Of a stretch of 64,000 bases of DNA, positions 1-64,000 are shown one piece after another. Both the position numbers and the translations under genes were made by a program. Source of the stretch: Chitinophagales bacterium (lineage in GTDB: Bacteria > Bacteroidota > Bacteroidia > Chitinophagales > UBA10324). The stretch lies in NCBI GenBank assembly GCA_038326325.1, contig JBBQJW010000017.1, positions 2,009 through 66,008 of the forward strand, written 5' to 3'. Position 1 is the first letter of the stretch. Each line of letters opens with the position of its first letter. A model generated the notes under the pieces. That model searched no databases and was not told where the DNA came from. It saw only the letters and a program-made list of their open reading frames with translations.

Positions 1-264
1 ACCAACAAGTGCAGTAAAAAATCCGTGAACCAAAATTGAAATCAGCATAGCCCACAAAGGCAATATTCCAACCATCACCAAAACATAACTCGCAATAAAA
101 ACGGTGAGAATGAAAACAGTTTTAAAAACCATCGCTGCATTCGCGTGAGTCGAAAGATTGTGTTTGCTGAAATATTCATCCACCCGCTTGCGAAGTGTGG
201 GATAAAATTCGGCAATTTTGTTTTTGTCGAATATTATTTTTTTATTGTCTGCTACTGTACTCAT
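1..264 (-). CDS. membrane fatty-acid desaturase family protein, N-terminal part (ORF runs off the window start)
   Basis: Own translation of the minus strand from the ATG at 262-264 gives MSTVADNKKIIFDKNKIAEFYPTLRKRVDEYFSKHNL..., followed by hydrophobic helices. The frame stays open to position 1. It is absent from the ORF track because it is truncated. Confidence 0.45.
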   Translation of the reverse strand, partial: MSTVADNKKIIFDKNKIAEFYPTLRKRVDEYFSKHNLSTHANAAMVFKTVFILTVFIASYVLVMVGILPLWAMLISILVHGFFTALVG

Positions 265-490
265 TTTTAAAATTGTAAAAAGTTTATTGTCACTGATTTA
301 CTGAAAAACAATCAACTTTTGCGGTGTTGCATTTTTTTGGCTGCGCTAAAGTCGTACAAATTTTTTTTAGTTGCATTATTCGGCAAGTTCCCCTTGAAAA
401 TCAGAATGTACAACAGCTTAGACATTCATTCCGCTTTGCGCTTTGAACCTTGCCCTCCGATAACGACTTTTGCCCCTCAATTTTAAAAAG

Positions 491-2224
491 ATGTATCGGA
501 CACATACTTGTGGTGAATTACGAAAAGAACATGCGGGGCAAGCTGTTACACTCGCCGGTTGGGTGCAGCGCGTGCGCGATTTAGGAAATCTGATTTTTAT
601 TGACCTGCGCGACCGGTACGGAATCACGCAATTATTTTTCGATACAAATTCTCCATTGGCTGACCAGGCGAAACAACTCGGTCGCGAATATGTGTTACAG
701 GTTAAAGGTTTAGTGCGCGAGCGAAGCAGCAAGAATGCGCAAATGGAAACCGGTGATATAGAATTAAAAGTGGAAGCGCTTAACATTCTCAATGAATCGA
801 AAACTCCTCCATTTACTATTGAAGAAGAAACCGATGGCGGCGATGATTTGCGTATGAAGTATCGCTATCTTGATTTGCGTCGCCCCGTTGTAAATAAAAA
901 TCTGTTACACCGTCATCGAGTGGCGCAGGCTGTTCGCGAGTATATGGATGGACAAGGATTCGCTGATGTTGAAACTCCCTTCTTAATTAAATCAACACCC
1001 GAAGGCGCTCGTGATTTTGTGGTGCCTTCGCGCTTACATCAGGGAAATTTTTATGCCTTGCCGCAATCACCACAAACTTTCAAACAACTTTTAATGGTGG
1101 CGGGATTTGACCGCTACTATCAGATTGTAAGATGTTTTCGCGATGAAGATTTGCGCGCCGACCGTCAGCCTGAGTTCACACAGATAGATTGCGAGATGGC
1201 TTTTGTTGACCAGGAAGATGTGTTACAGATGTTCGAAGGAATGGTAAAATCTGTTTTCAAAAAAGTGCGTGGCATTGAGCTGAATGATTTTCCAAGAATG
1301 AGTTACGCTGATTGCTTGAAATATTATGGCAACGACAAACCGGACCTTCGTTTTGAAATGAAATTGATTGAAGTGAATGATTTGGTAAAAGGAAAATCAT
1401 TTAAAGTTTTTGATGACGCTGAAGCGGTGATTGCAATTGTCGCTGCAGGTTGTAGTGAATACACGCGCAAGCAAACTGATGAATTAACTGATTGGGTGAA
1501 GCGTCCGCAAATTGGCGCTGGCGGTTTGGTTTTTATCAAGTGTAACAGTGATGGCTCGTTTAAATCTTCGGTTGACAAATTTTATACTGAAGATGATTTG
1601 AAAAAAATTGCTATGCACTGTAATGCTAAAGCCGGTGATTTAATTTTAATTCTCTCCGGCGCTCTTTCAAAAACAAGAAAGGCGATGAGTGAGTTGCGAT
1701 TGGAAATGGGGAATCGTTTGGGCTTGCGCAAAGGGGAAGATTACAAGCCGTTATGGGTTTTGGATTTTCCATTGCTTGAGTGGGACGAAGAAGATAAAAG
1801 GTGGAATGCGATGCATCATCCATTCACCTCATGGAAAAAAGAAGACAATGATTTAATCAATACAAACCCGGGAGCTGTTCGCGCAAATGCTTATGATGTG
1901 GTGATTAATGGCGTTGAACTTTCGAGTGGAAGTATTCGAATTCATAACCGAGCGCAACAGGAAAAAATGTTTTCACTGTTAGGATTAACCACTGAAGAAG
2001 CGAATTATAAATTCGGATTTATTCTTAATGCATTTGAATACGGCGCGCCTCCGCATGGTGGAATTGCATTCGGCTTCGACCGTTTTTGTTCCATCGTCAT
2101 TTCTAATCTCGATTACATCCGCGACTTCATTGCCTTCCCGAAAAACAATTCAGGAAGAGACATGATGCTTGATGCTCCCGCTGATATTGATTCGCGATTG
2201 AAAAAAGATTTGGGCTTGAGCTGA
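491..2224 (+). CDS. aspS: aspartate--tRNA ligase
   Basis: The 584-aa ORF has typical bacterial AspRS motifs ([56 protein letters not shown]). The start was moved to the MYRTH ATG at 491. Confidence 0.95.
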
Positions 2225-2287
2225 TCTTTGAACAACATTCTTTTGTTTGGATTAATACTTTTATCTCATTGAATTTTTAAAAACCCG

Positions 2288-5200
2288 ATGAAAAAAATTT
2301 TATTTCTACTCCTCTCACTTTTCACTTTTCACCTTTTATCATTTACCTCCTTCGCACAGCAAACTTTTCCAGTAAACGGAACACACGATTTGCGTGAAGG
2401 AAATTTCGCGTTCACTCATGCGACTATCGCCGTTGATTACAAAACAATGTTGAGTGATGCTACTCTTTTAATTCGCGATGGAAAAATTGAAGCCGTTGGA
2501 AATAATGTTTCCATTCCAACAGGTGTAACAGCGATTGATTGCAAGGGGAAATTCATTTACCCTTCGTTCATAGATTTGTACAGCAACTACGGAGTTTCTT
2601 CAATAGAAAATAAAAGTGATGGCAACAGACGCGGTCCGCAATTTCTTTCAAATAAATCAGGGGCATACAACTGGAATCAGGCGGTGATGCCAGAAGTAAA
2701 TGCTGCGGATAATTTTTCGGTCGATGAAAAACAATCTGAAAGTTATCGCTCGCTTGGTTTCGGCGCGATGCTCGTTCAGCGTTTCGATGGAATCATGCGC
2801 GGCACTGGTGCAGTAGTGCTTGCAGGAAATGAAAGTGATAACGAAATGTTGCTGAACGAGAAAGCCGCCTCATGTTATTCATTTAGCAAGGGAACGAGTA
2901 CGCAGGATTATCCTTCGTCGCTCATGGGTTCCATCGCGTTACTGCGACAAACTTTTTACGATTCGCAGTGGTACAAAGCGGGTGGTGATAAGGAAGAAAA
3001 AAATATTTCGCTCGATGCATTGAACAATCAGTTATCTCTTCCACAAATTTTTCAGGTGGATAACGACCTCAGCATTTTGCGTGCAGATAAAATCGGTGAT
3101 GAGTTCGGAATAAAATTTATAGTCAAAGGTGCGGGCGATGAATACCAACGGCTGGATGAAATAAAATCTACGGGCGACGCACTCATTGTTCCAATCAATT
3201 TTCCGAAACCATATAATGTTACAGACCCTGATGATGCGGAAATAATTCCGCTATCAGCGCTCATGAATTGGGAACAGGCACCTGCTAATCTTTCACGAAT
3301 TGATAAAGCAGGAATCACTTTCTCAATTACAAAACAAGGATGCGGCGATGATGACTTCTGGAAAAATCTTCGCAAGGCCATTGAATACGGATTGAATAAA
3401 TCCGACGCGCTCAAGGCGCTCACTTACACTCCCGCTCAACTTTCAAATGAATGGAACGAATTGGGTTCGTTAGAAAAAGGAAAACTCGCCAACTTCATCA
3501 TTTGTTCAGATTCTATTTTCAATGAAGAAAATATTATTTATCAGAATTGGGTGAAAGGAAAAGCATACCAGGTGAATGACGAAAAAATTTCTTCCCTCAA
3601 GGGAGAATATTCTTTCACACTGAACAGAATGAGTGATGTAAAGCTCACGATTGAAAATCCTTCTTCGAATAACGGAGTGTTACAGTTTCATGATTCAACA
3701 AAATCAGATGTGAAGTTTTCGTTGAACGACAATTTGATTTCTCTTAACTTCTCCATGCCGAATGATTCCACCAAACAATTGTATCGGGTGAATGGATTTG
3801 TTGAAGGGGGAAATTTTTCAGGAAAAGGTTTAGACCCGAACGGAAAAGAAGTGGTTTGGACGGCAACCAGAAGCGGCGATGTCCAAGCGAAAAAAGATTC
3901 CTCAAAAAATAAAAATGAAAAACCAGTTTTCGGAAAAGTAGTTTATCCGTTTGATGGTTATGGTTGCGATACATTACCAAAACAGGAAACTGTTCTGTTC
4001 AAAAACGCGACGGTGTGGACGAATGAAACTGACAGCATCCTCCTCAACACTGATGTACTAATCTCCAATGGAAAAATTCAACAGATAGGCAAAAACATTT
4101 CCGCTCCCGCAGGTGCGCGCATCATTGACGCGACAAATAAATTTCTTACAAGCGGAATCATTGACGAGCATTCGCACATCGCGATTTCGCAGGGAGTGAA
4201 TGAAGGAACACAATCCGTTACAGCTGAAGTTCGCATCGGCGATGTGGTGAATTCTGAAGACATTGATATTTACCGCAACCTCGCGGGCGGAGTCGTTTGC
4301 TCGCATCTGTTACACGGCTCAGCGAATAATATCGGCGGACAAACGCAACTCATAAAACTTCGCTGGGGTTACGCTCCCGAGCAAATGAAATTCGCGGGAT
4401 GGACGGGCTTCATCAAGTTCGCGTTGGGAGAAAATGTGAAGCAAAGCAACTGGGGCGACTATAACACTTCGCGCTTTCCACAAACAAGAATGGGTGTCGA
4501 GCAGAATTTATTCGACGCGTTTATCCGCGCGAAGGATTATGAATTGAAATGGAATACTTATAACAATGCAAGTCATTCTTCAACGAAAAATAAAACTGTT
4601 ACAGCCGAAATCCTCCGCAGAGATTTGGAATTGGACGCGCTCGTTGAAATTCTGAATGGAAAAAGATTCATCACTTGTCATTCTTATGTCCAGAGCGAAA
4701 TCAATATGCTCATGCATGTGGCGGACAGCATGCATTTTCAGATGAACACCTTCACGCACATACTCGAAGGATATAAAGTCGCCGATAAAATGAAGGCGCA
4801 TGGAGTATACGCCTCTACTTTTTCCGACTGGTGGGCTTATAAGTATGAAGTGTATGACGCGATTCCTTACAACTCCGCCATACTCACGAAGGTAGGGGTG
4901 GTGACCGCTGTGAATTCTGACGACGCTGAAATGGCGCGCCGATTAAATCAGGAAGCTGCGAAGAGCATCAAGTACGGAGGACTAACAGAAATGCAGGCGT
5001 GGAAACTCTGCACTCTCAATCCGGCCAAGATGTTACATGTGGATGATAAAATAGGAAGTATAAAAGTTGGAAAAGACGCCGATGTTGTTTTGTGGAATGC
5101 GAACCCGCTGAGTGTTTACGCGAAACCCGAGTACACTTTTGTTGATGGCGTTTGTTTTTTTAGTCTGCAATCTGATTTACAAAAACGCGATTTCATTCGC

Positions 5201-5351: not shown

Positions 5352-6647
5352 ATGAAAAAAATATTCTCATTACTTCTCTCTCTTTTCGTTTTCAGTGTTA
5401 CATACGCGCAAACAATTCCTGTTGCACCGCCGCAGGATTCAATCATCATTCTGATGAATGGCATTGCCCATTTAGGAAATGGTGAAGTGATTGAAAATTC
5501 CATTATCGAAATTGTGAAAGGAAAAATTGCAATGATTGGTGATGCGCGAACAATCCGATTAGAAAAATCAAATGCAAAAATCATAAACATCTATGGCAAG
5601 CATGTGTATCCCGGATTGATTGCGTGTAACAGTAATTTAGGACTGAATGAAATTGAAGCGGCTCGCGCCACACGCGATGCGAACGAGGTTGGTGATTTCA
5701 ATCCGAACATCAGAAGCATCATCGCATACAACACAGATTCAAAAGTGATCGCGACTGTTCGCTCCAATGGAATTTTGTTGGCGCAGGTTGTTCCGCAGGG
5801 CGGAATTATTTCAGGTTCATCTTCTGTTATGCAACTCGACGCGTGGAATTGGGAGGACGCTGCTTACAAAACCGACGAAGGAATTCATCTCAACTGGCCC
5901 TCGTACTTCACCGCGCATTTTGACAATCCCGATGGCGGAACAGTTGGCTTGAATGAAAAATACGTGGAGCAGGTTCAGAACATTCGAAATTTTTTCGATG
6001 AAGCGAAAGCGTATTCACAAACTGTTACACACGAAAACACGAACCTGAAGTTCGAAGCGATGCGCGAATTGTTTTCCGGGAAGAAAATTTTTTTCATTCA
6101 CGCGGATGGCGTGAAAGAAATTACCGGGGCGGTGCTTTTCGCAAAATCTTATAACATGCGATGCGTGATAGTTGGTGGTAGCGACGCATGGAAATGCACT
6201 GATATTTTAGTCGCTAATCATGTGTCGGTGATACTCGGTAGAATTCAATCGCTGCCAGGTTCAACGGATGATGATTATGATTTGCCCTACAAAACTCCGG
6301 CGCTCTTGAAAAAAGCGGGAGTAGATTTTTGTTTGAGCATGGATGGTTTCTGGCAGCAGCGCAATCTTTCTTTTCTTGGCGGAGAAGCGATTGCTTACGG
6401 AGAAATAAGTAAGGAAGAAGCGCTGCGATACATCACTTCAAATGCTGCGCGCATTCTTGGAATTGATAGTGTAACAGGAACTCTAGAATCAGGGAAGGAC
6501 GCGAACATTATAGTGAGCGATGGAGATATTCTCGACATGAAAACCAACAATATCATTTACGCTTTCATACAAGGTCGGGAAATAAATCTCGACGACAAAC
6601 AAAAAGACTTGTATGAAGTTTATAAAGCGAAGTATGGAATAAAATAA
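5352..6647 (+). CDS. secreted amidohydrolase family protein
   Basis: Signal peptide MKKIFSLLLSLFVFSVTYAQ and a C-terminal GTLESGKDANIIV motif. The start is set at the ATG at 5352, because the track start at 5292 overlaps the upstream gene. Confidence 0.75.
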   Translation: MKKIFSLLLSLFVFSVTYAQTIPVAPPQDSIIILMNGIAHLGNGEVIENSIIEIVKGKIAMIGDARTIRLEKSNAKIINIYGKHVYPGLIACNSNLGLNEIEAARATRDANEVGDFNPNIRSIIAYNTDSKVIATVRSNGILLAQVVPQGGIISGSSSVMQLDAWNWEDAAYKTDEGIHLNWPSYFTAHFDNPDGGTVGLNEKYVEQVQNIRNFFDEAKAYSQTVTHENTNLKFEAMRELFSGKKIFFIHADGVKEITGAVLFAKSYNMRCVIVGGSDAWKCTDILVANHVSVILGRIQSLPGSTDDDYDLPYKTPALLKKAGVDFCLSMDGFWQQRNLSFLGGEAIAYGEISKEEALRYITSNAARILGIDSVTGTLESGKDANIIVSDGDILDMKTNNIIYAFIQGREINLDDKQKDLYEVYKAKYGIK

Positions 6648-7101: not shown

Positions 7102-7743
7102 ATGGGAAAAAACAAATTGAAGCATTTCGCCGAGATGGAAACATTCACCAATGTTTTTCAGAAGGCGACGGCGATGAAAGGAAAATGGAATGAAGTTTTT
7201 TTTCAAAATGGAAATTCTGTTACACTTGAACTGGGCTGCGGCAAAGGGGAATATTCAGTAGCGCTCGCTAAAAATTATCCTGAAAGAAATTTTATCGGTA
7301 TTGACATCAAAGGAGCAAGAATCTGGCGCGGAGCGAAAACCGCGCTCGAAGAACAAATAAAAAATGTTTGCTTTCTGCGTGCGCAGGTTGATCATCTTCC
7401 TGAATATTTTGAAAAGAATTCTATTGATGAAATCTGGCTCACATTTTCCGACCCGCACTTACCGAAGAGCGAAGCAAGACGAAGACTGACTTCTCCAAAA
7501 TTTATTTCCATCTATCGCGAAGTATTAAAGCCCGCCGGAATCATTCACCTGAAAACAGATTCTTCCGTGCTTTATGATTTTACCCTTGAAGTAATTGCGG
7601 AACTGAAACTGAAAATGCTCTGGCACTCAAATGATATTTATGCCGCCGAGCTTCCTGATAAAATTCTCGAAGTAAAAACTTACTACGAGGAAATGAATCT
7701 GAAAAAAGGAAAGACGATTAAGTATGTGCGATTTGGTTTATGA
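7102..7743 (+). CDS. trmB: tRNA (guanine-N7)-methyltransferase
   Basis: Shows LELGCGKGEY (SAM motif), IGIDIKG and WLTFSDPH.K, which are typical of TrmB. Confidence 0.9.
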   Translation: MGKNKLKHFAEMETFTNVFQKATAMKGKWNEVFFQNGNSVTLELGCGKGEYSVALAKNYPERNFIGIDIKGARIWRGAKTALEEQIKNVCFLRAQVDHLPEYFEKNSIDEIWLTFSDPHLPKSEARRRLTSPKFISIYREVLKPAGIIHLKTDSSVLYDFTLEVIAELKLKMLWHSNDIYAAELPDKILEVKTYYEEMNLKKGKTIKYVRFGL

Positions 7744-8772: not shown

Positions 8773-8854
8773 TACAAATAAAACTGTAACAGTAGCGCCG
8801 ATTTCAGATTGTCTGAACCGAGATTAAACTGATTAATGGATTTATAGGATTAAG

Positions 8855-8888: not shown

Positions 8889-8980
8889 GTTTGAAAAAAA
8901 ATTAATTTGGCGGTTGCTAAAAAGCCTACTGTTGAAAACACACAGGCAGGGGCAGAAGGTGTAACACCGACAAACAAAAA

Positions 8981-9306: not shown

Positions 9307-9528
9307 CTGGTTACAGCTTTTTCGCTATGATAGCGCTATAGGATTAGTAATTGTTACGGTGTAACGGAATCACGCTTTCGATATAGTGTTGCCTGCGTGA
9401 GTGATTGTAGTGGAAATCATTTTTTGTGATTACACAAAAAATATTGAAACGAAAAGCACGACAGCATTTTTTTGAATACAAAAAAATGGTGGCACGCCCG
9501 ACACTTCGACAAGCTAAGTGTTACAGTG

Positions 9529-10863
9529 TTACAGGTATTCCTTAATCATATTCTGAATTTCAGCGGAAGAAAATTTCTCTTCGAGATTTTCAATCTGAAA
9601 AAGTTTCTCGAGCAATTCGTCGTGATGCTTTCCGATTCGCATGGCTTCGGAATACGGAATGTGCGTGAACGAAACCATGGAGTAAGCCGGAATAAATTTT
9701 TCGGGAAACGCAACGGCAATCATTTTCTCGATTTGCTTTTTGCGTAGGAATTTTTTGTCGGCGACGAGGTCGCGCATCTCCACAAAATTGTTGAGCGCCA
9801 TATCACAAATGGCGTCGGCGTTTATTTTTCGCGCCTGCTGATAGAGCGGCAGAATGGTGTTCCAGTCGTCGGTGTAACGGTACATGAGTTCGCCGAGTGC
9901 GGTGCAGTCTTCGAAACCGCAATTCATTCCCTGCCCGAAAAACGGAACCACGGCGTGCGCTGCGTCGCCGATGAGCGCCGCTTTGTTTTTGTAAACCCAC
10001 GGATAACATTTCACATACACGAGCGACGAAGTGGGGTTGCTGAAAAAATCTTTTTTGTATGAAGGCATCATCGTCACGGCATCTGGAAAATATTTAGTGA
10101 AAAATTTTTCTGCTTCGTCTTCCGTTTTAATCGTGGCGAAAGATTCTTCTCCTTCGTTGTGAAAAAATAAAGTGCAGGTAAAACTTCCATCCATGTTGGG
10201 CAACGCGATGAGCATGAAATTTTTTCGCGGCCAGATGTGCAGCGCGTTTTTCTCCATCAGGAATTCGCCGTTCTCTCCGGCGGGAATATGCAGTTCTTTA
10301 TAACTGTGTTCGATGTAGGTCTGCGAATAATCGAAGCGATCTGTCTTGAGCATGGAGCTTCGCAACGCGGAGAAAGCGCCGTCGGCTCCGAAAATCAATT
10401 CCGAATTTTTTGTCGTGCGTTGATTGGTGTTGTGGTCTTCGAAAATCATTTCGCCTTTTTCGAGATTCACTTCGTCGCAGCGGTGATTGAAATAAATTTT
10501 TACTCCGGATTGTCTCTCCGCCAAATCCATCATGGCCATGTTGAGTCCACCACGCGACACGGAATAAATCGCCTGTCCTTCTTTTCCATAAGGTTGAAAT
10601 GAAAGTGTGCCGTCGGTGTTGTGCACCATTCTTCCATTCATAGGAATAGCGACTTTGCGAATCTCTTCTTCGAGTCCGGCACCAATCAATCCTTTCCATC
10701 CTCTGTCGCTGAGTGCGAGATTGATGGAACGACCGGCACTGATTTTTTCTGTGCGCATATCGGGGCGACGCTCATAAATGTCAACCTTGTATCCGCGCTT
10801 CGCGAGATAAACCGAGAGCAGCGAACCGACTAACCCCGCTCCGAGAATTGTTGCTTGTTTCAT
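9529..10863 (-). CDS. kmo: kynurenine 3-monooxygenase (FAD-dependent)
   Basis: Has the GAGLVGSLLSVYLAKRGY FAD fold, the DALIGDAAHAVVPFFGQGMN motif, and the right length and context next to kynU. Confidence 0.9.
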   Translation of the reverse strand: MKQATILGAGLVGSLLSVYLAKRGYKVDIYERRPDMRTEKISAGRSINLALSDRGWKGLIGAGLEEEIRKVAIPMNGRMVHNTDGTLSFQPYGKEGQAIYSVSRGGLNMAMMDLAERQSGVKIYFNHRCDEVNLEKGEMIFEDHNTNQRTTKNSELIFGADGAFSALRSSMLKTDRFDYSQTYIEHSYKELHIPAGENGEFLMEKNALHIWPRKNFMLIALPNMDGSFTCTLFFHNEGEESFATIKTEDEAEKFFTKYFPDAVTMMPSYKKDFFSNPTSSLVYVKCYPWVYKNKAALIGDAAHAVVPFFGQGMNCGFEDCTALGELMYRYTDDWNTILPLYQQARKINADAICDMALNNFVEMRDLVADKKFLRKKQIEKMIAVAFPEKFIPAYSMVSFTHIPYSEAMRIGKHHDELLEKLFQIENLEEKFSSAEIQNMIKEYL

Positions 10864-16708: not shown

Positions 16709-16799
16709 TCTCTGGTTTCGGGCTATGAGTTTGTTGTTTCAGATTAGAAAAAGTTAGTGTAACAGTATATAAAAATTAATCGGGCAAAAAACAAAACCA

Positions 16800-18308: not shown

Positions 18309-18482
18309 TTCTGATAAAAATTTGCAGGTGTAACAGTTTGGGATCTTCGCCTGATTTTTTCAAAACCCATTTTATTCACGATAAAAAATTTCTCTTTCAG
18401 AACCGATATTCTTCAGATTAGAATTTTTCACATACTCGCGGCGATGTATTGTCGTTAATCATTCTGATTAAAAATGTGAGTC

Positions 18483-20969: not shown

Positions 20970-21042
20970 TTTGTGAATAGTGAATGGTCAATCGTGAATT
21001 CTGTTACACTTGTATTTCATCTTCAAATTTTCAAATCAGGCA

Positions 21043-26180: not shown

Positions 26181-26484
26181 GTATATCGTAGAAATTTTTC
26201 AGCCAGAAAAAGCTTTTAAATCCTTCTTCATAAAATCCCGCACTTCAATGATTGTAGAGTAGGTAATCACTCACCAGATTCCATTTCTTGCTCACGGGAT
26301 TTTTGTGAATGTAGTTAAGTTTCTGCAACATCATTTCCTTCCGTCCGCGCCGAGTCATTCGCTGTGCCTTGCGCTATGCCTGAGGACTCGGCGTTTATTC
26401 CTTCACCACCTTCCTGACTGTTACACTTAACCCGCCAATATCGCACCTCATTTCTTTCACAACATAAAAGTAATCAATCCTCCA

Positions 26485-52811: not shown

Positions 52812-53593
52812 TTTTTAATTTTCAATTCAAATTCATCCTTATCAAGCAACACTGGAAACTCTTTTCTATATGAATCAAGATTCGATTTTGAAAGCTCAAT
52901 AGTATGAATGATTTCGTTGTTGGTTTTTTGAAAAAGAATTTCGCCCTTCATGTCAATCACCGAACTGTCGCCGCTATGGAAGATTTTATTTCCATCCCCG
53001 CCCACTCTGTTTAATCCAATGGTGTAACACTGATTTTCTATTGCGCGCGCAATGAGCAAAGATTTCCACGCCTGAATTCTTCGCTCCGGCCAATTGGCGA
53101 CATACAAGAGCAAATCATAATTCTCTGCGTTGCGACTCCAGACGGGAAAGCGCAAATCGTAACATACGAGTGGACAAATTTTCCATCCCTTCCATTCCAC
53201 GATTAATTTTTTATCGCCCCGGCTGTAGTGATTATTCTCTTCACCCATTCTGAACAAATGGCGCTTGTCGTAAGTGAAAAAATTTCCATCGGGCTGCATC
53301 CATATCAGGCGGTTAAAATATTTTCCTGAATCTTTAATCATCACACTTCCACACAACACGACATTTTTTTTCGAGGAAATATTTTTCATCCATTCAATAG
53401 TTCGGCCACCCATTTCTTCAGCGAATAATTCAGGTTTCATGCTGAATCCGGTTGAGAACATTTCAGGAAGTAGAATCAGGTCGGTGTTTTCAACCGAAGA
53501 AATTTTTTCATCGAACATCGAAAGATTGGCGTCAATGTTTTCCCAATGAAGATTGGATTGAATAAGAGTTACGCGAAGATTGTTATCAGCCAT
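52808..53593 (-). CDS. carbon-nitrogen hydrolase family amidohydrolase (omega-amidase/YafV-like)
   Basis: E-K-C triad context: LLPEMF, YDKRHLF and CPLVCYDLRFP. Confidence 0.85.
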   Translation of the reverse strand: MADNNLRVTLIQSNLHWENIDANLSMFDEKISSVENTDLILLPEMFSTGFSMKPELFAEEMGGRTIEWMKNISSKKNVVLCGSVMIKDSGKYFNRLIWMQPDGNFFTYDKRHLFRMGEENNHYSRGDKKLIVEWKGWKICPLVCYDLRFPVWSRNAENYDLLLYVANWPERRIQAWKSLLIARAIENQCYTIGLNRVGGDGNKIFHSGDSSVIDMKGEILFQKTNNEIIHTIELSKSNLDSYRKEFPVLLDKDEFELKIKK

Positions 53594-53651: not shown

Positions 53652-54368
53652 ATGCAGGCGAAAACCGAAGGCATAGTTTTTCGAACAACTAAATATTCCG
53701 AGACGAGCGTGATCGCTTCGGTTTATACTGAACAATTCGGATTGCAGAGTTATATCATTAACGGAGTAAGGGGAAAAGCGAAATCGAATTCAAAATCTTC
53801 GTCGCTGCAATTGCTTTCCATTTTGAATATGGAGGTTTATAAAAAGGAAAATAAAAACCTGAACCGGATAAAAAGTTTTGAATCGGCGGTCGTGTTTAAG
53901 GAGATTCCGTTTGATGTGGTGAAAAGTTCACTCACTTTATTTATCGCGGAAGTTTTGAACCGAACCGTGGTGGAGGAAGAGTGTAACAGTCCGCTTTATC
54001 ATTTCGTGCGCAACTCGGTACTGGAATTGGACGGCGCGAAAAACGCTTCTGATTTTCATTTGCATTTTCTCGCCGCGTTAACTCAGCATCTTGGATTTTC
54101 TCCTCACGGAAAATATGCCGATGAAACGCCTGAGTTTAATTTGATGGATGGAAGTTTCGTGAATAATTCTTCCGTCTTTAATCCGCATTATTTATCAGGA
54201 GAAAACGCCCAACGATTTTCTGAATTATTTTTTAATCCCACTTCATTAAACCTGAATAAAAAAAACAGAAAAGAATTACTGCTGTCGTTGCTTGAATATT
54301 ACCGGCTGCATGTTTCCAATTTCAATATCATGAAATCACTTGAGGTGATTGAACAGGTGTTTGCGTGA
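53652..54368 (+). CDS. recO: DNA repair protein RecO
   Basis: Typical RecO N-terminal OB region, GIVFRTTKYSETSVIASVYTEQFGLQSY. The start is moved to 53652. Confidence 0.8.
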   Translation: MQAKTEGIVFRTTKYSETSVIASVYTEQFGLQSYIINGVRGKAKSNSKSSSLQLLSILNMEVYKKENKNLNRIKSFESAVVFKEIPFDVVKSSLTLFIAEVLNRTVVEEECNSPLYHFVRNSVLELDGAKNASDFHLHFLAALTQHLGFSPHGKYADETPEFNLMDGSFVNNSSVFNPHYLSGENAQRFSELFFNPTSLNLNKKNRKELLLSLLEYYRLHVSNFNIMKSLEVIEQVFA

Positions 54369-54380: not shown

Positions 54381-54752
54381 GCGCATGGTTTTGAGGGGGA
54401 CTGCGTATATCAATTTACTACACTGCGTATGTGAATTTACTGCGTTGCGTATTTTGATTTACGGCACTGCGTATTTGTATTTACTTCGGTGTGTATGCTC
54501 ATTAACCCCATTGCGTATATCTATTAACGCTATTGTGTAAAGCTCTTACTGTAACAGCGTATTATCATTTACTGCATGGCGTATTGTCGTTAATTGCATG
54601 GCGTATTGTTATTTACTATTGTGCGTATGATTCTTGACCGTATTGCGCATGTGATTGAGTGATTGTTTCTATTCAAATTAGTGCATAAGGTGTATACTAA
54701 TGTTTTCAGGGGCATATTTTCCTGACTGAATGTGTATTGTACGAATTCGTAC
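54381..54752 (+). repeat. array of about 16 degenerate tandem repeats with a strict 22-bp period
   Basis: G(C/T)G(T/C)AT anchors fall every 22 bp from 54381 to 54645 (54381, 54403, 54425, and so on). They continue roughly in phase at 54690, 54712 and 54732. The consensus is GCGTATnnnnATTTACTnnnnT. Confidence 0.85.
54739..54752. promoter_or_regulatory. perfect 14-bp palindrome GTACGAATTCGTAC, candidate operator
   Basis: It lies between the end of the repeat array and the start of the HTH gene. Confidence 0.35.
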
Positions 54753-55218: not shown

Positions 55219-56166
55219 ATGGCACTTTTAATCAGACCTGTTTACCGATGCACTCAACTTGAGCTGTATTCGACATTGAAAACCATTTGGGACAATTATG
55301 ATGACCATCAGGCGCAACTTGTTACTTACAAGAGTAAGTATGATGCTCCGCTGAGTGTTACACACAAGGGTGAAATTGCCGCTGCGAAAGCTTTGCCTGA
55401 CGAAGAAGCGCGAAATGCTGAATCGCAGAATCTTCGGATTGATGTAACAGCGCTTGGTCAAAAATGCACCCGCAACTGGCAACTATTGAAGGGATATATT
55501 GTGGAAGCTTATCCAGGGGCTAATCAGAAAGTACAGTTGGATGCAGCGGGGGCGGTTTACTATGTACCGGCATCGCACAGCAACTGGGAGTTTGTGGCGG
55601 GCATGAATTCTTCTGCAAACAATTTTATCGTTGCAAACGGTGCAGCATTATTAGCGGATGGTTTTATGCCCGCAGGATTTAAACTTCAATACAAAACTGA
55701 CAGCGATGCTTTTGATGTTAAGTATGATGAGTTTAAACATGCGCAACAATCGAGTGAGGGAACTGACGAGAAAATAAAAGCGAACAATAAAATTTATGAG
55801 GACAGCATGAAGATGTGCGCTGATGCAACAATGTTTTTTGTAACGGATGATTCGATAGTGAAGAAGTTTACTTTCACTACAGTGTTACAGATTGTTAGCC
55901 CGCCGGGGAGTGCAAGTTTGAAAATACAAGCCATTAACTTAGGCACTAATGAAATTATTGTTGGAGCGAAGGTGGTGATTCAGAAGGAAGGCAATGCTGC
56001 ATTGAACGGAATTACTGATGACAGTGGTGAAGTTGTTTTTCCGGGGATTGACCCGGGTGCTTATGATGTGACTATTGCCGCCGTTGGATATACTGCGATG
56101 AATTTCAGTAAGGATGTGAATACAGGTGTGAGTGCGCGAAAGGATGTGTTTATGACGGCGGTTTAG
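55219..56166 (+). CDS. hypothetical protein: helical N-terminal domain + C-terminal CarboxypepD_reg-like beta-sandwich (paralog of 26559-27467)
   Basis: The C-terminus is GAKVVIQKEGNAALNGITDDSGEVVFPGIDPGAYDVTIAAVGYTAMNF. It shares an LLAD.G...A....F.T segment with the other copy. Confidence 0.6.
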   Translation: MALLIRPVYRCTQLELYSTLKTIWDNYDDHQAQLVTYKSKYDAPLSVTHKGEIAAAKALPDEEARNAESQNLRIDVTALGQKCTRNWQLLKGYIVEAYPGANQKVQLDAAGAVYYVPASHSNWEFVAGMNSSANNFIVANGAALLADGFMPAGFKLQYKTDSDAFDVKYDEFKHAQQSSEGTDEKIKANNKIYEDSMKMCADATMFFVTDDSIVKKFTFTTVLQIVSPPGSASLKIQAINLGTNEIIVGAKVVIQKEGNAALNGITDDSGEVVFPGIDPGAYDVTIAAVGYTAMNFSKDVNTGVSARKDVFMTAV

Positions 56167-56238: not shown

Positions 56239-56314
56239 TTTTATTAACTGTTACAGTTCGGTTTTAAACCAGAATTTTTAATTGCACTCGAGGCGACAGG
56301 CCGGACAGAGCTGA

Positions 56315-58858: not shown

Positions 58859-58865
58859 TTTGTGT

Positions 58866-58892: not shown

Positions 58893-59144
58893 GGTTTTGT
58901 TTTTCTATAAACCTTTCATCCCTCGAGGATGATTTTTTATTTGGTATTTTTTTCTACCAATATTTTGTTCCGATGGAACAGGTGTAACAGATTTATTTTA
59001 AAGGACAGAAAGGACATGAAGGGCATGAAGGACGGGTGGGCAAGTGAGACTGTTATAGATTGCTTCAAAAATTGATTAAAATTTTTTCGCAATGACACCG
59101 TGAAAAAAAGATGAACAGCTGTAAGATGCTTAGAAGCCGGGTAG

Positions 59145-60015: not shown

Positions 60016-61953
60016 TTAGCGTCCCAAATAAACCATCAACACCGATACATCACTTGGATTTACACCGCTGATGCGGCTTGCCTGCCCCAGTGTGCGGGGT
60101 TTGTGCTTCGTGAGTTTTTCGCGAGCTTCGAGCGAGAGCGAATTTATTTTCGCATATTCAAAATTTTCGGGCACCGGAACATATTCGAGGCGGTTCATCT
60201 TCTCCACTATTTCTTTTTCCTTCTCAATATAACCTTCGTACTTCATAAGTATTTCCGCCTGCTCAATGCTGTCTTCCATTTTGCCGGAAAGCAATTCTTT
60301 CACGGAAGCGATTTTTTCTCTGATATCGTTCATTTCAATTTGCGGGCGAGAGAGCAACTGAAGCAATTTTGTTTTTTGTTTTATCTCGCTTGAATCCTGT
60401 TCGGTGAGAATGGCATTTACATCATCAGGTGTTACACTTTCCTTTTTGAAGAAATCCATAATCACTTTCGTTTCTTCTATTTTTTTATTTACGAGATCCA
60501 ATCTTTCATCACTCGCCAGTCCAAGTTTGTGAGCGAGCAGGGTCAGGCGGATATCAGCGTTATCCTGTCGCAATAAAATACGGAACTCGGCGCGGCTGGT
60601 GAACATTCGATACGGTTCGTTGGTGCCCTTGGTAATTAAATCGTCAATCAACACGCCGATGTATGCCTCGTCGCGAGAGAGAATAAATTCCGGGTTGTCA
60701 TTTATTTTCTGGTGAGCATTGATGCCCGCCATTATTCCCTGACACGCGGCTTCTTCGTAACCCGTAGTGCCGTTGATTTGCCCCGCATGAAATAAATTTT
60801 CTACCACCCGCGTTTCCAGATTTGTTTTCAGTTGGTGCGGCGGAAAGAAATCGTATTCAATCGCGTAACCCGGACGAAACATGCGCACATTTTCGAAACC
60901 GGGAATCAGTTGCATCGCCTTGTACTGAACTTCTTCGGGCAACGAGGTGCTGAACCCATTGACATAAATTTCTATGGTGTCCCAACCTTCGGGTTCAACA
61001 AATAACTGGTGTCGCGTTTTATCGGCGAAGCGATTTATTTTATCTTCAATACTCGGACAGTAGCGCGGACCTAATCCCTGAATTCTCCCCTGAAACATGG
61101 GGCTTTGTTCGAATCCTGTTTTCAGAATATCATGAACCTCAGGGCTTGTGTAGGTGATGTAACAACTTTTCTGCCGCCTCGAGACCTCACCCCTAACCCC
61201 TCTCTCAAGGAGAGGGGAACTGTTGCTATTAATTTTCTCGTCTGTATTTTCGAATGCGGATGTTCCGGGTTTGTATGAAAATTTTCCCGGCGCCTCATCT
61301 CCTTTCTGTTCTTCCATCAAAGAATAATTCAAGCTTCTTCCATCAACGCGCGGAGGAGTTCCTGTTTTCATCCTTCCTGATTCCAGCCCGAGTGAAAGCA
61401 ATTGTTCGGTAATTCCGCTCGACGCTTTCTCCGCCATGCGACCACCGCCAAATTGTTTTTCGCCAATGTGAATGATGCCGTTGAGAAATGTTCCGTTCGT
61501 GAGTACAACGGCTTTCGATTTTATTTCCATTCCCATTCCGGTGCGCACTCCACAAACTCTTCCGTCTTTAATTAATAAGCCGCTCACCATGTCCTGCCAG
61601 AAATCCACATTGGGAGTTTGCTCGAGCATTTCTCTCCACTCCTTCGCGAATAATAATCTGTCGCTTTGCGCGCGCGGGCTCCACATCGCTGGACCCTTCG
61701 AACGATTCAGCATTCTGAATTGAATCATGGTGCGGTCGGTTACAATTCCTGAGTAACCACCGAGCGCATCTATCTCTCGAACGATTTGTCCCTTCGCTAC
61801 GCCACCCATTGCGGGATTGCAACTCATTTGCGCAATCGTTTGCATGTTCATGGTTACGAGCATGACTTTGCTGCCGAGGTTAGCTGCTGCTGCTGCTGCC
61901 TCGCAACCGGCATGACCGGCGCCTACTACTATTATGTCGTATTCAGGAAACAC
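60016..61953 (-). CDS. mnmG: tRNA uridine 5-carboxymethylaminomethyl modification enzyme MnmG (GidA)
   Basis: VVGAGHAGCEAA, MSCNPA.GG, GPRYCPSIEDK and GQINGTTGYEEAA. It contains an extra segment of about 24 aa (see findings). Confidence 0.95.
   Translation of the reverse strand: MFPEYDIIVVGAGHAGCEAAAAAANLGSKVMLVTMNMQTIAQMSCNPAMGGVAKGQIVREIDALGGYSGIVTDRTMIQFRMLNRSKGPAMWSPRAQSDRLLFAKEWREMLEQTPNVDFWQDMVSGLLIKDGRVCGVRTGMGMEIKSKAVVLTNGTFLNGIIHIGEKQFGGGRMAEKASSGITEQLLSLGLESGRMKTGTPPRVDGRSLNYSLMEEQKGDEAPGKFSYKPGTSAFENTDEKINSNSSPLLERGVRGEVSRRQKSCYITYTSPEVHDILKTGFEQSPMFQGRIQGLGPRYCPSIEDKINRFADKTRHQLFVEPEGWDTIEIYVNGFSTSLPEEVQYKAMQLIPGFENVRMFRPGYAIEYDFFPPHQLKTNLETRVVENLFHAGQINGTTGYEEAACQGIMAGINAHQKINDNPEFILSRDEAYIGVLIDDLITKGTNEPYRMFTSRAEFRILLRQDNADIRLTLLAHKLGLASDERLDLVNKKIEETKVIMDFFKKESVTPDDVNAILTEQDSSEIKQKTKLLQLLSRPQIEMNDIREKIASVKELLSGKMEDSIEQAEILMKYEGYIEKEKEIVEKMNRLEYVPVPENFEYAKINSLSLEAREKLTKHKPRTLGQASRISGVNPSDVSVLMVYLGR
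61197..61217. repeat. perfect 8-bp-stem hairpin CCCCTCTC-tcaag-GAGAGGGG inside the mnmG coding sequence
   Basis: Seen directly in the sequence. It encodes ...SPLLERGVRGEV... within the extra segment. Confidence 0.8.
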
Positions 61954-62575: not shown

Positions 62576-63046
62576 TTATTTCTTTCCTTCCGGTTTGGGC
62601 GATAATATTTTCATTTGTTCCGAAATATTTTCTTCATCGAGTTCGGTTGTGCCTCGGTGACAAGTGATACATCTTACAGAATGAATAGTATCGGGCTGAG
62701 TTGATTTCATCCAGTTGAAATAGTTGGCGTTGATCTCGCTTGTCATTTTCATCATGTAACGGGCGATGTCTTTATGTTCGTTTGCATCACTTGCAAAGTC
62801 TAATTTGTGAATAGTGGTGTCTGCATTTCGAGCGTGACAGAATCCGCATTTTACTCCGAGCGCGGTTTTAAACTCATCCATTACCTGATGAAGTTTTTCC
62901 TCGCTAATATCTTTTGGCAGAACCTTCAAATTTTTAAATTCATCACCGGGTTTCTGATTAGTTTTTATCGAGGCGCTGATTGAAATGAAGGCCGCCAGAA
63001 GCAGAACAACGCCAATTGATTTTTTAAATGTAACAGTCATGACCAA
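62576..63046 (-). CDS. c-type cytochrome (two CxxCH haem sites), secreted
   Basis: Has a signal anchor, plus CGFCH and CITCH. Confidence 0.75.
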   Translation of the reverse strand: MVMTVTFKKSIGVVLLLAAFISISASIKTNQKPGDEFKNLKVLPKDISEEKLHQVMDEFKTALGVKCGFCHARNADTTIHKLDFASDANEHKDIARYMMKMTSEINANYFNWMKSTQPDTIHSVRCITCHRGTTELDEENISEQMKILSPKPEGKK

Positions 63047-63247
63047 TTAATTTATTTCAACAAAATAATGAAATAAATTCAAAAGTCATTGACGATAATT
63101 TCTCAGGATTTAAAAAGCAGTTGATATGCTTTGTATTCCGGATAATTCCATTCCAGCCAATTGCTGTTTTCCCATCGCCGTTTAAAATTCTCTTTTCGCT
63201 TTTTAATCACATCGGCGAAATTGATGTAACAGAAATTATAAAAAATA

Positions 63248-63886
63248 TTAATTCACAACCCAAAGCAACACTGGCTTATCGGAAGACTTCAACAATTTAT
63301 CTAACTCCTCCATAAAATTATTTGAAACAGCGGGGCATCCCCAACTCTCTGCTGACCCCGAAGGAAATATTTCTTCATCTGAAACGGCCTCCCAGGAGTG
63401 TAACACTATCGTCCGTTTCAATGCGTTTGAGTTTGTTGAATCCAGGCCATACAAAAGATATTTAACATTCATTCCCCACTGACTATATCCACGGTCGGAG
63501 ACTTTATATTTTCCGAGCGATGAACAATGACTGTCACACACATTGCTGAATTGCGGAGTGGTTTTGGTTCCGTCGTTACTCCATCCTTCGCTACCACAGC
63601 CGTGTGTTACCAATCCACGGGCTGTTACACTTTGTTCATTGAGATTCCAAACGAAGAACCGGTTCTTACCCGAGTGAATGCTCATGTCAATGAAAAAACA
63701 GAACTCAGTATTGAAATTATTTTCTTTACAAAACGAAAGCGCTTCGGCACTCAGCTTTTTTATTTTCAATGAATCAGTAGGAGACGAAATTGAATTTTCA
63801 ACTGTTCCGCTACACGAATTCAAAAAGAATAATTGAAGTGCAAACAGGTAAACCCATGATTTGTTGAGGATGGAATTTAAGTTCAT
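63248..63886 (-). CDS. L,D-transpeptidase catalytic domain-like (YkuD_2-type) lipoprotein
   Basis: Lipobox LNSC, HGCGS, and IVLHSWEAVSDEE...ESWGCPAVS. Confidence 0.65.
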   Translation of the reverse strand: MNLNSILNKSWVYLFALQLFFLNSCSGTVENSISSPTDSLKIKKLSAEALSFCKENNFNTEFCFFIDMSIHSGKNRFFVWNLNEQSVTARGLVTHGCGSEGWSNDGTKTTPQFSNVCDSHCSSLGKYKVSDRGYSQWGMNVKYLLYGLDSTNSNALKRTIVLHSWEAVSDEEIFPSGSAESWGCPAVSNNFMEELDKLLKSSDKPVLLWVVN

Positions 63887-64000
63887 GTTAATTGGAAAAA
63901 TTACGATTATAACGAAGCAAATGAATTGATATTATTTAATAAAAACTCAATGAAGGATTTGGGCGCTCGCTTTTTATTCATTGAAAGAATTAAGCTATGT

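Follow-up and report, generated by a model that had tools for sequence, protein, structure and literature searches.

What does it mean when one short palindrome recurs more than once per kilobase, in genes and spacers alike, through a long stretch of a bacterial chromosome? The stretch in question, 64,000 nucleotides of the 69,217-bp contig JBBQJW010000017.1 (assembly GCA_038326325.1, positions 2,009 to 66,008 of the forward strand; hereafter the window, meaning this whole stretch), belongs to a metagenome-assembled genome (MAG) of an uncultured, freshwater, Chitinophagales-related member of the Bacteroidota. The word is TGTWACA, for which an earlier note, made by reading the sequence alone, had estimated 85-90 copies by hand; the estimate was sound, and exactly 90 copies are present (1.41/kb). 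The pattern described below is that of a strong, motif-wide, lineage-specific directional force on the DNA sequence, indifferent to coding, and the true unit on which it acts is the 9-mer S-TGTWACA-S.

Abundance of TGTWACA

Instead of the 90 copies, 100 dinucleotide shuffles yield 8.4 on average (sd 3.0, never above 17), and order-1 to order-3 Markov models predict 7.9-14.5 (10.6 for order 2, 14.5 for order 3). When synonymous codons were shuffled within each of 53 open reading frames (ORFs), with every protein and the per-gene codon usage kept, 13.1 copies were expected inside ORFs (sd 3.3, maximum 22) against 75 found. In other Bacteroidota loci (~1.2 Mb) the density is 0.12-0.13/kb. The over-representation proposed in the earlier note therefore holds under dinucleotide, Markov and codon-aware nulls and likewise in the comparison with other Bacteroidota.

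These results bear directly on the possibility that the word is a passive by-product of composition, of codon or codon-pair usage, or of avoided palindromes. Word biases in the window are indeed extreme (a single ACGT where 222 are expected, with many 6-mer palindromes almost absent), and V-T dipeptides make up about half of the sites. Such an origin is nevertheless essentially refuted by the synonymous-codon shuffles (13±3 vs 75), by identical flanks in all frames and spacers, and by relatives with the same ACGT loss and CpG-rich bias that have 6-16x fewer copies. The codon-driven palindrome TCGSCGA behaves differently, with 14 of its 17 genic copies in one frame. TCGSCGA was itself considered as a second iterated palindrome (18 copies vs 2.3) and rejected, because its frame xTC-GSC-GAx (e.g., I-G-D, V-A-D; sites e.g. 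4236, 9758, 13101, 37707, 61022) indicates a codon or dipeptide effect.

The enriched unit

Scaled from a comparison set of 1.19 Mb of loci of related Bacteroidota, with G+C similar to that of the window, 1.6 copies of S-TGTWACA-S are expected and 69 are found (43x); the order-2 Markov expectation is 1.43. On the same scale, the core with one S flank is found 16 times (4.1 expected), while W-TGTWACA-W is at background (5 vs 2.5). C or G stands at -1 in 78 of the 90 sites and at +1 in 76, A at -2 in 47 and T at +2 in 42, and information content is confined to ~±3 nt around the core. The earlier note had extended the motif to an 11-bp palindrome. Its flank preference is real, and A-S-TGTWACA-S-T occurs 19 times against about 0.05 expected from relatives, but the 9-mer describes the element better than a strict 11-mer. 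Compared with close relatives, the inner GTWAC shows no excess unless flanked by T..A, and TGTSACA is at background in the window compared with relatives.

One-mismatch forms of the 9-mer number 54 against 41.9 expected, or 1.3x overall. Two of them stand out, S-CGTWACA-S (C for the first T, or G for the last A; 13 vs 1.7, 7.8x) and A-TGTWACA-S (11 vs 1.8, about 6x), while most of the remaining neighbours are depleted. The S-CGTWACA-S copies mean either that position 1/7 tolerates Y/R or that these are decaying or nascent copies. The specificity of the 9-mer is thus sharp and near all-or-none. A Chi- or KOPS-type skewed word was rejected, as S-TGTWACA-S is its own reverse complement and the centre base on the + strand is T in 50 copies and A in 40.

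Placement in genes and effect on proteins

Inside ORFs the word is read in all three frames, namely frame 2 as xxT-GTW-ACA (V-T; 43 copies), frame 1 as xTG-TTA-CAx ([LVM]-L-[QH]; 21 copies), and frame 0 as TGT-WAC-Axx (C-[NY]-x; 11 copies). The other 15 of the 90 lie in spacers or at ORF edges, where 13.4 are expected from the 14.9% non-coding share of the window, so that coding and non-coding DNA are equally served. The S flanks are kept wherever the word lies, at 77-93% in the three frames and at 87% at intergenic sites. A and T are about equally frequent (near 50:50) at the centre, despite a twofold preference for GTT over GTA codons. V-T dipeptides are written GTWACA in 53 of 80 cases, and 43 of these 53 follow a codon ending in T. 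The individual copies singled out in the earlier note lie where it placed them (AGTGTTACAGT at 3676-3686, ACTGTAACAGT at 8783-8793, GTG TTA CAG at 692-700 and 1220-1228), as do CTG TAA CAG, with the stop codon of infB, at 33449-33457 and the pair at kmo (9519-9533), whose members are one G apart and of which the second supplies the stop.

The proteins have been affected as well. Against a baseline of about 750,000 codons from relatives, the compatible tripeptides of the window are spelled with the motif far more often: 43 of 74 X-V-T (58% vs 10%), 21 of 28 [MLV]-L-[HQ] (75% vs 7%), and 11 of 14 C-[NY]-x (79% vs 18%). The tripeptides themselves are also 1.5x, 1.8x, and 3.1x commoner, respectively, than in relatives. 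In three-way protein alignments with the relatives L002 and L082 (labels of this kind denote loci of relatives), residues of the window under the motif are 49% and 57% identical to those of the relatives vs 82% elsewhere, while the same columns are 65% identical between L002 and L082 vs 85% elsewhere. Sites thus arise preferentially at variable positions, as the two relatives show, and the extra divergence of the window shows that its lineage in addition altered residues to build the word. The changes that built it (e.g., L-L-N to L-L-H, L-I-Q to L-L-Q, M-L-K to L-L-Q, C-N-V to C-N-I) are synonymous where possible and otherwise conservative replacements. Doubled encoded tripeptides and poorly conserved locations have been described for uptake sequences (Findlay & Redfield 2009, PMC2817400). 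Because the excess survives codon shuffles, because three frames and spacers share identical flanks, and because amino acids were changed, TGTWACA is supported as a DNA-level signal overriding codon context, as the earlier note had proposed.

Origin of the copies by point substitution

All five aspS sites align without indels to orthologues, and 19 sites are gap-free in alignment to at least two relatives, with reading frames that stay open. Polarised with at least two relatives, these 19 sites yield 35 motif-creating changes, which by folded position fall on the flank (8), T (6), G (6), T (8), and W (7). Of the 35, 20 are transitions and 15 transversions, and nine substitution types are represented. 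At 903..909 in aspS, TTA-TTG-CAT of the nearest relative (L167) corresponds to CTG-TTA-CAC in the window, three synonymous changes within seven bases. The copies were thus made by directional fixation of ordinary point substitutions, not by insertions. Substitutions at all positions without indels argue against both the insertion of a mobile unit and single-mismatch patch repair.

That the copies are the ends or footprints of a tiny mobile element, or an artefact of sequencing or assembly, might be entertained, since cyanobacteria harbour mobile repeats of very small size (cited in Elhai 2015, PMC4390886) and the window comes from a MAG. This origin is likewise essentially refuted, and is the least credible of those weighed here: the sites checked are gap-free against orthologues, base for base, several sites are common to relatives assembled from other samples, and the Logan assemblies of run SRR19962011 match the window at 100% identity along stretches of 17.5 kb and 5.0 kb. 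A repeat of the REP (repetitive extragenic palindromic) or MITE (miniature inverted-repeat transposable element) type was rejected on the indel-free aspS sites, on the lack of information beyond ~±3 nt, and on the 75 of 90 copies inside ORFs.

The substitution spectrum also bears on methylation. Dcm/Vsr very-short-patch repair acts on CCWGG in Escherichia coli, and a lineage-specific methyltransferase with linked repair of near-cognate mismatches, following either that system or Elhai's methyl-directed repair model for HIP1 (the highly iterated palindrome of cyanobacteria), could accumulate the site with no role in uptake. We consider this unlikely. Odd-length palindromes with a central W are characteristic of Type II recognition, and the sharp specificity (43x for the perfect word vs 1.3x for one-mismatch forms) agrees with such an enzyme; the genome is otherwise heavily palindrome-avoiding, implying many restriction-modification systems, and a rise in one lineage agrees with the mobility of methyltransferases. 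A methyltransferase-linked reading becomes more plausible, though not proven, because the genome is under unusually heavy word-level pressure. On the other hand, the nine substitution types occur at every position including flanks and centre, for which T:G to C:G patch repair is insufficient, and TGTWATA/TATWACA, the neighbours expected from deamination, show no more than a mild deficit (17 vs about 27). The Vsr effect on CCWGG in E. coli is modest against the 43x seen here, and no methyltransferase gene is present in the 64 kb searched. Enrichment driven by very-short-patch repair as such was rejected, because it needs T>C / A>G gains only and 15 of the 35 changes are transversions. In favour of methylation, alternate HIPs in cyanobacteria co-occur with cognate methyltransferases (Elhai 2015, PMC4390886).

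Relatives and the density gradient

S-TGTWACA-S stands at 1.08/kb in the window, at 0.18/kb in the congeners L167, L173, and L176 (AspS 87-93% identical), at 0.07/kb in the next relatives L002, L003, L082, and L004, and at 0.024/kb in other Bacteroidota, to which the window is ~45x higher. The three congeneric loci carry 4, 2, and 4 copies vs 0.2-0.4 expected per locus, about 7x background, so that confinement of the word to one genome can be dismissed. In 80 kb pooled from L167, L176, L173, and L082, CTGTAACA ranks second among over-represented 8-mers (16 vs 2.3). Two of the five aspS sites are common to the 93% relative L167 and none to the 87-88% relatives L173 and L176, while L082 has 4 of 28 alignable sites in common and L002 has 1 of 20, few sites in either case. 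Sharing is thus nested, and density drops stepwise with phylogenetic distance; both suggest that the pressure began low in the clade and then intensified here or relaxed elsewhere.

Beyond the window end, 3.25 kb holds five further copies of the word. A metagenome scan for conspecific contigs gave one near relative only (L082), the longest contig in a 90%-identity cluster look-up for them was 3.4 kb, and a look-up of the 1016-aa amidohydrolase for a 5' extension gave no match. Synteny with the congeners ends directly after aspS (2225-2290), where the window has two large amidohydrolase genes, L167-L175 have rpsT-dnaJ-grpE, and L176 has another set.

Spacing and gaps

Spacing of the 90 sites is Poisson-like (coefficient of variation 0.96). 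The largest gap is 3989 bp (P=0.25), and gaps of at least 2.4 kb number 4 vs 2.9 expected for 90 random points (P=0.31). Only one close direct pair of copies is found (9519/9527). The earlier note had named four copy-free intervals and suggested that absence of the motif marks acquired DNA. All four exist (56256-58982, 13701-16178, 42365-46346, and 9534-11990), but their use as a marker of foreign DNA has no statistical support: spacing is random-like, and the gap at 42.4-46.3 kb is at least partly native because it is collinear with L002 and L082 up to about 43.6-43.9 kb.

Two low-G+C blocks within these intervals look accessory. The TPR and DUF2971 genes at 13824-15613 (G+C 0.28-0.29) and the DUF7793 and Schlafen/AlbA_2 genes at 56484-58767 (G+C 0.33-0.35) contain neither the motif nor a compatible tripeptide. 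The blocks were plausibly acquired recently, while the gap lengths are within chance. At 9529-12639, kmo and the kynureninase gene have G+C 0.42-0.47, above their surroundings, with a PDDEXK_3 nuclease-fold gene of G+C 0.30 between them. At the nucleotide level kmo is 89% identical to short ENA contigs; these continue differently downstream, with neither of the two stop-codon copies, and the missing pair says little, as kmo itself carries no copies.

A dimeric nucleoid-associated or chromosome-organising protein might bind the 9-mer, with selection keeping about one site/kb, in analogy to the chromosome-structure role proposed for HIP1 (Xu et al. 2018). The site is palindromic and sharply defined, copies are found throughout the window with no gap above chance, and some are kept between sister lineages. 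We regard this explanation as quite improbable, as close relatives have 6-40x fewer sites, which would date any essential structural role to very recent times; residues were altered to make sites although the selective advantage of each would be tiny, and no candidate protein is known.

A possible self-DNA tag

The W-centred palindrome and the near all-or-none specificity suggest that the word is read by a dimeric, highly specific recognition protein, which could be a DNA methyltransferase resembling those of Type II, a receptor for DNA, or a DNA-processing factor. By analogy with uptake sequences, we tentatively favour the view that S-TGTWACA-S is a self-DNA tag in natural transformation, spread by molecular drive and possibly acting via methylation of the site. 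Conspecific DNA fragments bearing a site would be more likely to be taken up, to survive, or to recombine. Because site-bearing fragments would be favoured in transformation, alleles with the site would replace alleles without it, and the drive, of the kind proposed for the uptake signal sequences (USS) of Pasteurellaceae and the DNA uptake sequences (DUS) of Neisseriaceae, would act on the whole motif.

This view is favoured because the proteome footprints and graded densities match those of uptake sequences, and also because natural competence favouring own DNA is known in the phylum and HIP1 has a link to methylation and transformation. Riemerella columbina is naturally competent and prefers its own DNA, with no defined motif (PMC7965970), and HIP1 was recently linked to methylation-dependent transformation.

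Several observations weigh against a self-DNA tag. The window contains no DNA methyltransferase, restriction, or competence gene (recO is its sole recombination or repair gene), and no DNA methyltransferase was found within the ~67 kb of the genome that could be reached. Classical uptake sequences are non-palindromic and spacer-enriched, whereas here 15 of the 90 copies lie outside ORFs vs 13.4 expected. One-mismatch forms are enriched only 1.3x, compared with about 10x for the USS of Actinobacillus pleuropneumoniae and for HIP1 (PMC1939737); relative to perfect-word enrichment, the value is similar to that of HIP1. Spacing is no more even than random, and most of these footprints would also be left by a repair bias or by selection for a function inside the cell.

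The earlier note knew of no such element in Bacteroidota, and open PMC and bioRxiv, whose coverage is incomplete, gave us no description of TGTWACA in the phylum and none of another iterated palindrome or an uptake sequence there; a metaepigenomics paper on lake MAGs has no GTWAC-type motif. The sole literature match to TGTWACA, a Salmonella OmpR motif, cannot account for 1 copy per kb, and neither can the LexA-like boxes of Bacteroidota (CTAA-N5-TTAG). It is rather doubtful that the word represents the first sequence-specific self-DNA tag in Bacteroidota, possibly read in methylated form and caught mid-amplification. If it does, the receptor or methyltransferase could be findable by gene presence and absence among congeners (sisters at ~0.2/kb, distant relatives at background).

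Catalogue of sites and other features of the window

Table 1. The 90 copies of TGTWACA in the window. Coordinates are those of the core; the strand is given as "." (palindrome); letters such as V-T or V-L-Q are the encoded residues. T9SS, type IX secretion system.
Sequence	Class	Core	Strand	Location	Residues	Remarks
GCTGTTACACT	9-mer	544..550	.	aspS ORF 470-2224(+)	V-T	xxT-GTT-ACA; L167 one mismatch off
TGTGTTACAGG	9-mer	693..699	.	aspS	V-L-Q	xTG-TTA-CAG; relatives TTG, synonymous G>A created site
TCTGTTACACC	9-mer	903..909	.	aspS	L-L-H	CTG-TTA-CAC; L167 TTA-TTG-CAT
TGTGTTACAGA	9-mer	1221..1227	.	aspS	V-L-Q	common to L167/L169/L175
AGTGTAACAGT	9-mer	1541..1547	.	aspS	C-N-S	TGT-AAC-AGT; common to L167/L169
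GGTGTAACAGC	9-mer	2524..2530	.	amidohydrolase ORF 2288-5338(+)	V-T	
AATGTTACAGA	core, one S flank	3217..3223	.	ORF 2288-5338	V-T	
AGTGTTACAGT	9-mer/11-mer	3678..3684	.	ORF 2288-5338	V-L-Q	
TCTGTTACACG	9-mer	4308..4314	.	ORF 2288-5338	L-L-H	
ACTGTTACAGC	9-mer	4597..4603	.	ORF 2288-5338	V-T	
GATGTTACATG	core only	5031..5037	.	ORF 2288-5338	M-L-H	
AGTGTTACATA	core, one S flank	5396..5402	.	ORF 5292-6647(+)	V-T	
CGTGTAACAGT	9-mer	5625..5631	.	ORF 5292-6647	C-N-S	
ACTGTTACACA	9-mer	6023..6029	.	ORF 5292-6647	V-T	
AGTGTAACAGG	9-mer	6470..6476	.	ORF 5292-6647	V-T	
TCTGTTACACT	9-mer	7218..7224	.	trmB-like ORF 7102-7743(+)	V-T	
ACTGTAACAGT	9-mer/11-mer	8785..8791	.	intergenic		16 nt past ORF 8446-8772
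GGTGTAACACC	9-mer	8960..8966	.	intergenic		convergent spacer
AGTGTTACAGT	9-mer	9519..9525	.	just beyond kmo stop		first of pair; not in kmo relatives L164/L165
AGTGTTACAGG	9-mer	9527..9533	.	kmo stop		second of pair; gives TAA stop (- strand)
ACTGTTACACC	9-mer	11998..12004	.	kynureninase ORF 11365-12639(-)	V-T	common to L162/L163
AGTGTTACAGT	9-mer	13308..13314	.	ORF 12695-13774(+)	V-L-Q	
AGTGTTACAGG	9-mer	13578..13584	.	ORF 12695-13774	V-L-Q	
ACTGTTACACA	9-mer	13693..13699	.	ORF 12695-13774	V-T	
AGTGTTACAGC	9-mer	16179..16185	.	pfkB ORF 15773-16708(+)	V-L-Q	
AGTGTAACAGT	9-mer	16758..16764	.	intergenic		
ACTGTTACACT	9-mer	17129..17135	.	ORF 16800-18308(+)	V-T	
GCTGTAACAGA	9-mer	17684..17690	.	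ORF 16800-18308	V-T	
TCTGTTACACC	9-mer	17940..17946	.	ORF 16800-18308	C-Y-T	
GGTGTAACAGT	9-mer	18329..18335	.	intergenic		
ACTGTTACATC	core, one S flank	19682..19688	.	ORF 18761-20398(-)	V-T	
ACTGTTACAGT	9-mer/11-mer	20582..20588	.	paaD-like ORF 20478-20969(-)	C-N-S	L082 has CGG codons there
CCTGTAACAGT	9-mer	20844..20850	.	ORF 20478-20969	V-T	common to L082
TCTGTTACACT	9-mer	21002..21008	.	intergenic		
CGTGTAACACA	9-mer	21386..21392	.	paaC ORF 21043-21792(-)	V-L-H	L082 identical peptide without motif
ACTGTTACATC	core, one S flank	22761..22767	.	paaA ORF 22191-23183(-)	V-T	common to L082
ATTGTTACAAT	core only	24463..24469	.	T9SS-tail ORF 24118-25938(-)	V-T	
ACTGTAACAGT	9-mer/11-mer	24592..24598	.	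ORF 24118-25938	V-T	
CATGTTACAAG	core only	24918..24924	.	ORF 24118-25938	C-N-M	
TCTGTAACAAT	core, one S flank	24946..24952	.	ORF 24118-25938	V-T	
GATGTTACACG	core, one S flank	25342..25348	.	ORF 24118-25938	V-T	
ACTGTTACACT	9-mer	26419..26425	.	intergenic		
CCTGTTACATC	core, one S flank	26703..26709	.	ORF 26559-27551(-)	V-T	
CCTGTAACACT	9-mer	26778..26784	.	ORF 26559-27551	V-T	
AGTGTTACAGC	9-mer	27860..27866	.	LytTR ORF 27599-28081(-)	V-T	
GTTGTTACAGT	core, one S flank	28976..28982	.	rimP ORF 28677-29141(+)	V-V-T	relatives I-I-T / V-I-T
ACTGTTACACC	9-mer	31075..31081	.	infB N-terminal region	T-V-T	not in L002/L003/L082
ACTGTTACACC	9-mer	31180..31186	.	infB	T-V-T	relatives S-T-T / A-A-T
ACTGTTACACC	9-mer	31408..31414	.	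infB	T-V-T	relatives T-A-P / T-A-I
CCTGTAACAGA	9-mer	31768..31774	.	infB	P-V-T	L082 TCTGTTACAGA at equivalent position
TGTGTAACATT	core, one S flank	33170..33176	.	infB C-terminal part	C-N-I	relatives C-N-V
ACTGTAACAGA	9-mer	33450..33456	.	infB stop		gives TAA stop; L002 GCTGTGATAAA
GTTGTAACAGT	core, one S flank	33546..33552	.	intergenic		3' of infB
TCTGTAACAGT	9-mer	34272..34278	.	glycosyltransferase ORF 34265-35005(-)	L-L-Q	relatives M-L-K
CCTGTAACAGT	9-mer	34797..34803	.	ORF 34265-35005	L-L-Q	relatives I-Q-H / L-N-L
ACTGTTACAGC	9-mer	35647..35653	.	Wzy_C ORF 35002-36249(-)	A-V-T	relatives I-A-A / L-A-T
ACTGTTACACC	9-mer	37260..37266	.	MeaB-like ORF 37151-38068(+)	L-L-H	relatives L-L-N
GTTGTTACATC	core only	38183..38189	.	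intergenic		
TCTGTTACACC	9-mer	39261..39267	.	ORF 38643-40037(-)	G-V-T	relatives E-V-V / S-V-A
TGTGTAACACT	9-mer	39721..39727	.	ORF 38643-40037	V-L-H	
GCTGTAACAGT	9-mer	40621..40627	.	hybrid histidine kinase ORF 40199-43192(+)	A-V-T	relatives S-I-T / I-I-S
GGTGTAACAGA	9-mer	41107..41113	.	ORF 40199-43192	G-V-T	L002 GGTGTTACAGA
ACTGTTACAAA	core, one S flank	41727..41733	.	ORF 40199-43192	L-L-Q	relatives L-I-Q
GGTGTAACAAT	core, one S flank	42061..42067	.	ORF 40199-43192	G-V-T	L082 GGTGTTACAAT
AGTGTAACAGT	9-mer/11-mer	42358..42364	.	ORF 40199-43192	S-V-T	relatives I-A-T / E-K-A
ACTGTTACACT	9-mer	46347..46353	.	Big_5 ORF 44974-46656(+)	V-T	
ACTGTAACACG	9-mer	47640..47646	.	M1 peptidase ORF 47198-49981(-)	V-L-Q	
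TCTGTAACAGT	9-mer	47699..47705	.	ORF 47198-49981	V-T	
ACTGTAACACT	9-mer	48889..48895	.	ORF 47198-49981	C-Y-S	
AGTGTTACATA	core, one S flank	49121..49127	.	ORF 47198-49981	V-T	
ACTGTAACAGT	9-mer/11-mer	49428..49434	.	ORF 47198-49981	L-L-Q	
ACTGTAACAGA	9-mer	50713..50719	.	beta-lactamase-fold ORF 50388-51692(-)	L-L-Q	
AGTGTTACAGT	9-mer/11-mer	50960..50966	.	ORF 50388-51692	C-N-T	
GGTGTAACACT	9-mer	51211..51217	.	ORF 50388-51692	V-L-H	
TCTGTTACAGG	9-mer	51757..51763	.	cyclophilin ORF 51694-52395(-)	V-T	
AGTGTTACAGT	9-mer/11-mer	52288..52294	.	ORF 51694-52395	V-T	
GGTGTAACACT	9-mer	53023..53029	.	CN-hydrolase ORF 52808-53593(-)	C-Y-T	
AGTGTAACAGT	9-mer/11-mer	53982..53988	.	recO ORF 53580-54368(+)	C-N-S	
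ACTGTAACAGC	9-mer	54550..54556	.	intergenic		
AGTGTTACACA	9-mer	55356..55362	.	ORF 55219-56166(+)	V-T	
GATGTAACAGC	core, one S flank	55443..55449	.	ORF 55219-56166	V-T	
AGTGTTACAGA	9-mer	55883..55889	.	ORF 55219-56166	V-L-Q	
ACTGTTACAGT	9-mer/11-mer	56249..56255	.	intergenic		
GGTGTAACAGA	9-mer	58983..58989	.	intergenic		
GGTGTTACACT	9-mer	60430..60436	.	mnmG ORF 60016-61953(-)	V-T	
GATGTAACAAC	core only	61158..61164	.	mnmG	C-Y-I	
AATGTAACAGT	core, one S flank	63029..63035	.	ORF 62576-63046(-)	V-T	
GATGTAACAGA	core, one S flank	63225..63231	.	intergenic		
AGTGTAACACT	9-mer	63399..63405	.	YkuD_2 ORF 63248-63886(-)	V-L-H	
GCTGTTACACT	9-mer	63623..63629	.	ORF 63248-63886	V-T	

The single ACGT of the window lies at 5962, where base composition predicts about 222. 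The tetramer is near-eliminated clade-wide (L002, L003, L004, L082, and L167-L176), with 0 vs about 30-80 expected in each of L004, L082, L167-L172, L175, and L176, and 5 vs 43 in L173; the loci of congeners in this count are 9-23 kb long. The next relative out (L005) has 31 vs 61, and the median observed/expected in 149 other loci is 0.52. This loss suggests a long-standing ACGT-specific restriction pressure or a mutational sink. Other words are depleted compared with related Bacteroidota (observed/expected), namely AACGTT (0/16), TACGTA (0/7.3), AGGCCT (0/6.6), GGTWACC (0/6.4), AAGSCTT (1/14.5), TGATCA (2/22.5), TAGCTA (1/11.5), CTAG (8/59), and AGSCT (12/100). Against the four nearest relatives at the infB locus, AGSCT (12/58), GGCC (30/90), and GATC (53/123) are depleted in this lineage only. 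CGCG, GCGC, GCGCGC, TCGCGA, and TGAWTCA are 2-10x commoner clade-wide than in other Bacteroidota, a compositional trait that is not specific to the window. Over-represented words in 80 infB loci of relatives (L036, CACGAATG; L018, AGTTAGCA; L045; L064; L070) were rejected as local tandem or clustered repeats.

Neither tRNA nor Rfam scans of the window turned up anything connected with the word. In the convergent spacer between an Fe-S biogenesis gene and kmo, which also carries four copies of the word, 9386-9467 (+) matches the Flavo-1 RNA motif (Rfam RF01705) at 58.3 bits, a value that exceeds the gathering score. At 28200-28540, in a divergent spacer of about 600 bp upstream of rimP-nusA-infB, lies a degenerate tandem array with units of roughly 28 nt (…GGTAAGCGAAAACAATAGC…GAAACAA…); two of its 82-nt stretches are 80% identical, and it has no significant Rfam match.

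Comparison with known systems

Hyper-abundant words at about 1 copy/kb are known from few bacterial groups, as USS, DUS, and HIP1, and the function of HIP1 has been debated for 30 years. S-TGTWACA-S is an independent, young instance in another phylum, and its steep gradient to low-density close relatives is a natural experiment that offers a comparative-genomic route to the causal gene. It shows such words being built by substitution, at visible cost to proteins. If related to uptake, it would point to sequence-selective natural transformation in abundant freshwater Bacteroidota. The word is a strong lineage marker for binning and, subject to a genome-wide check, could flag recent acquisitions.

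Likening the word to HIP1 and to uptake sequences, as the earlier note did, is justified by density, by fold-enrichment, and by the effect on proteins: S-TGTWACA-S behaves like both but is a member of neither. HIP1 (GCGATCGC) is also a short palindrome at about 1 copy/kb (300-2700 copies per Mb, observed/expected 55-228, compared with 1078 per Mb and ~43-48 here), and it shares the placement in genes and spacers in all frames, the palindromic flank extensions, the lineage-specific exceptions or replacements, and an unsettled function. HIP1 is, in contrast, GC-rich, even-length, and phylum-wide in Cyanobacteria, whereas S-TGTWACA-S is AT-rich, odd-length, and W-centred, and belongs to one shallow clade of Bacteroidota with a steep density gradient. 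HIP1 proper was rejected, as the word differs from GCGATCGC and the host is Chitinophagales-related, not a cyanobacterium.

With the USS and DUS the word shares a density of about 1 copy/kb and a very high observed/expected (here 1.08/kb and ~43x), encoded tripeptides roughly doubled, location at poorly conserved residues, an origin by point mutation rather than insertion, and densities that differ between related lineages. The 9-12-mers of USS and DUS lack symmetry, favour spacers, and often occur as inverted pairs in terminators, while S-TGTWACA-S is palindromic and shows neither habit (15 of 90 copies vs 13.4; one direct pair). The RAATTY of Campylobacter jejuni, where CtsM provides methylation-dependent self-recognition in transformation, is likewise palindromic, short, and AT-rich, and its methylation could label DNA as self; it is frequent simply through the AT-rich genome of that species, and we know of no evidence that it is driven to a 40x excess. 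The CCWGG of E. coli (Dcm/Vsr) is a W-centred palindrome raised, like S-TGTWACA-S, by a DNA-level, coding-independent process, but with a T>C / A>G spectrum where that of S-TGTWACA-S is wider, with nine types.

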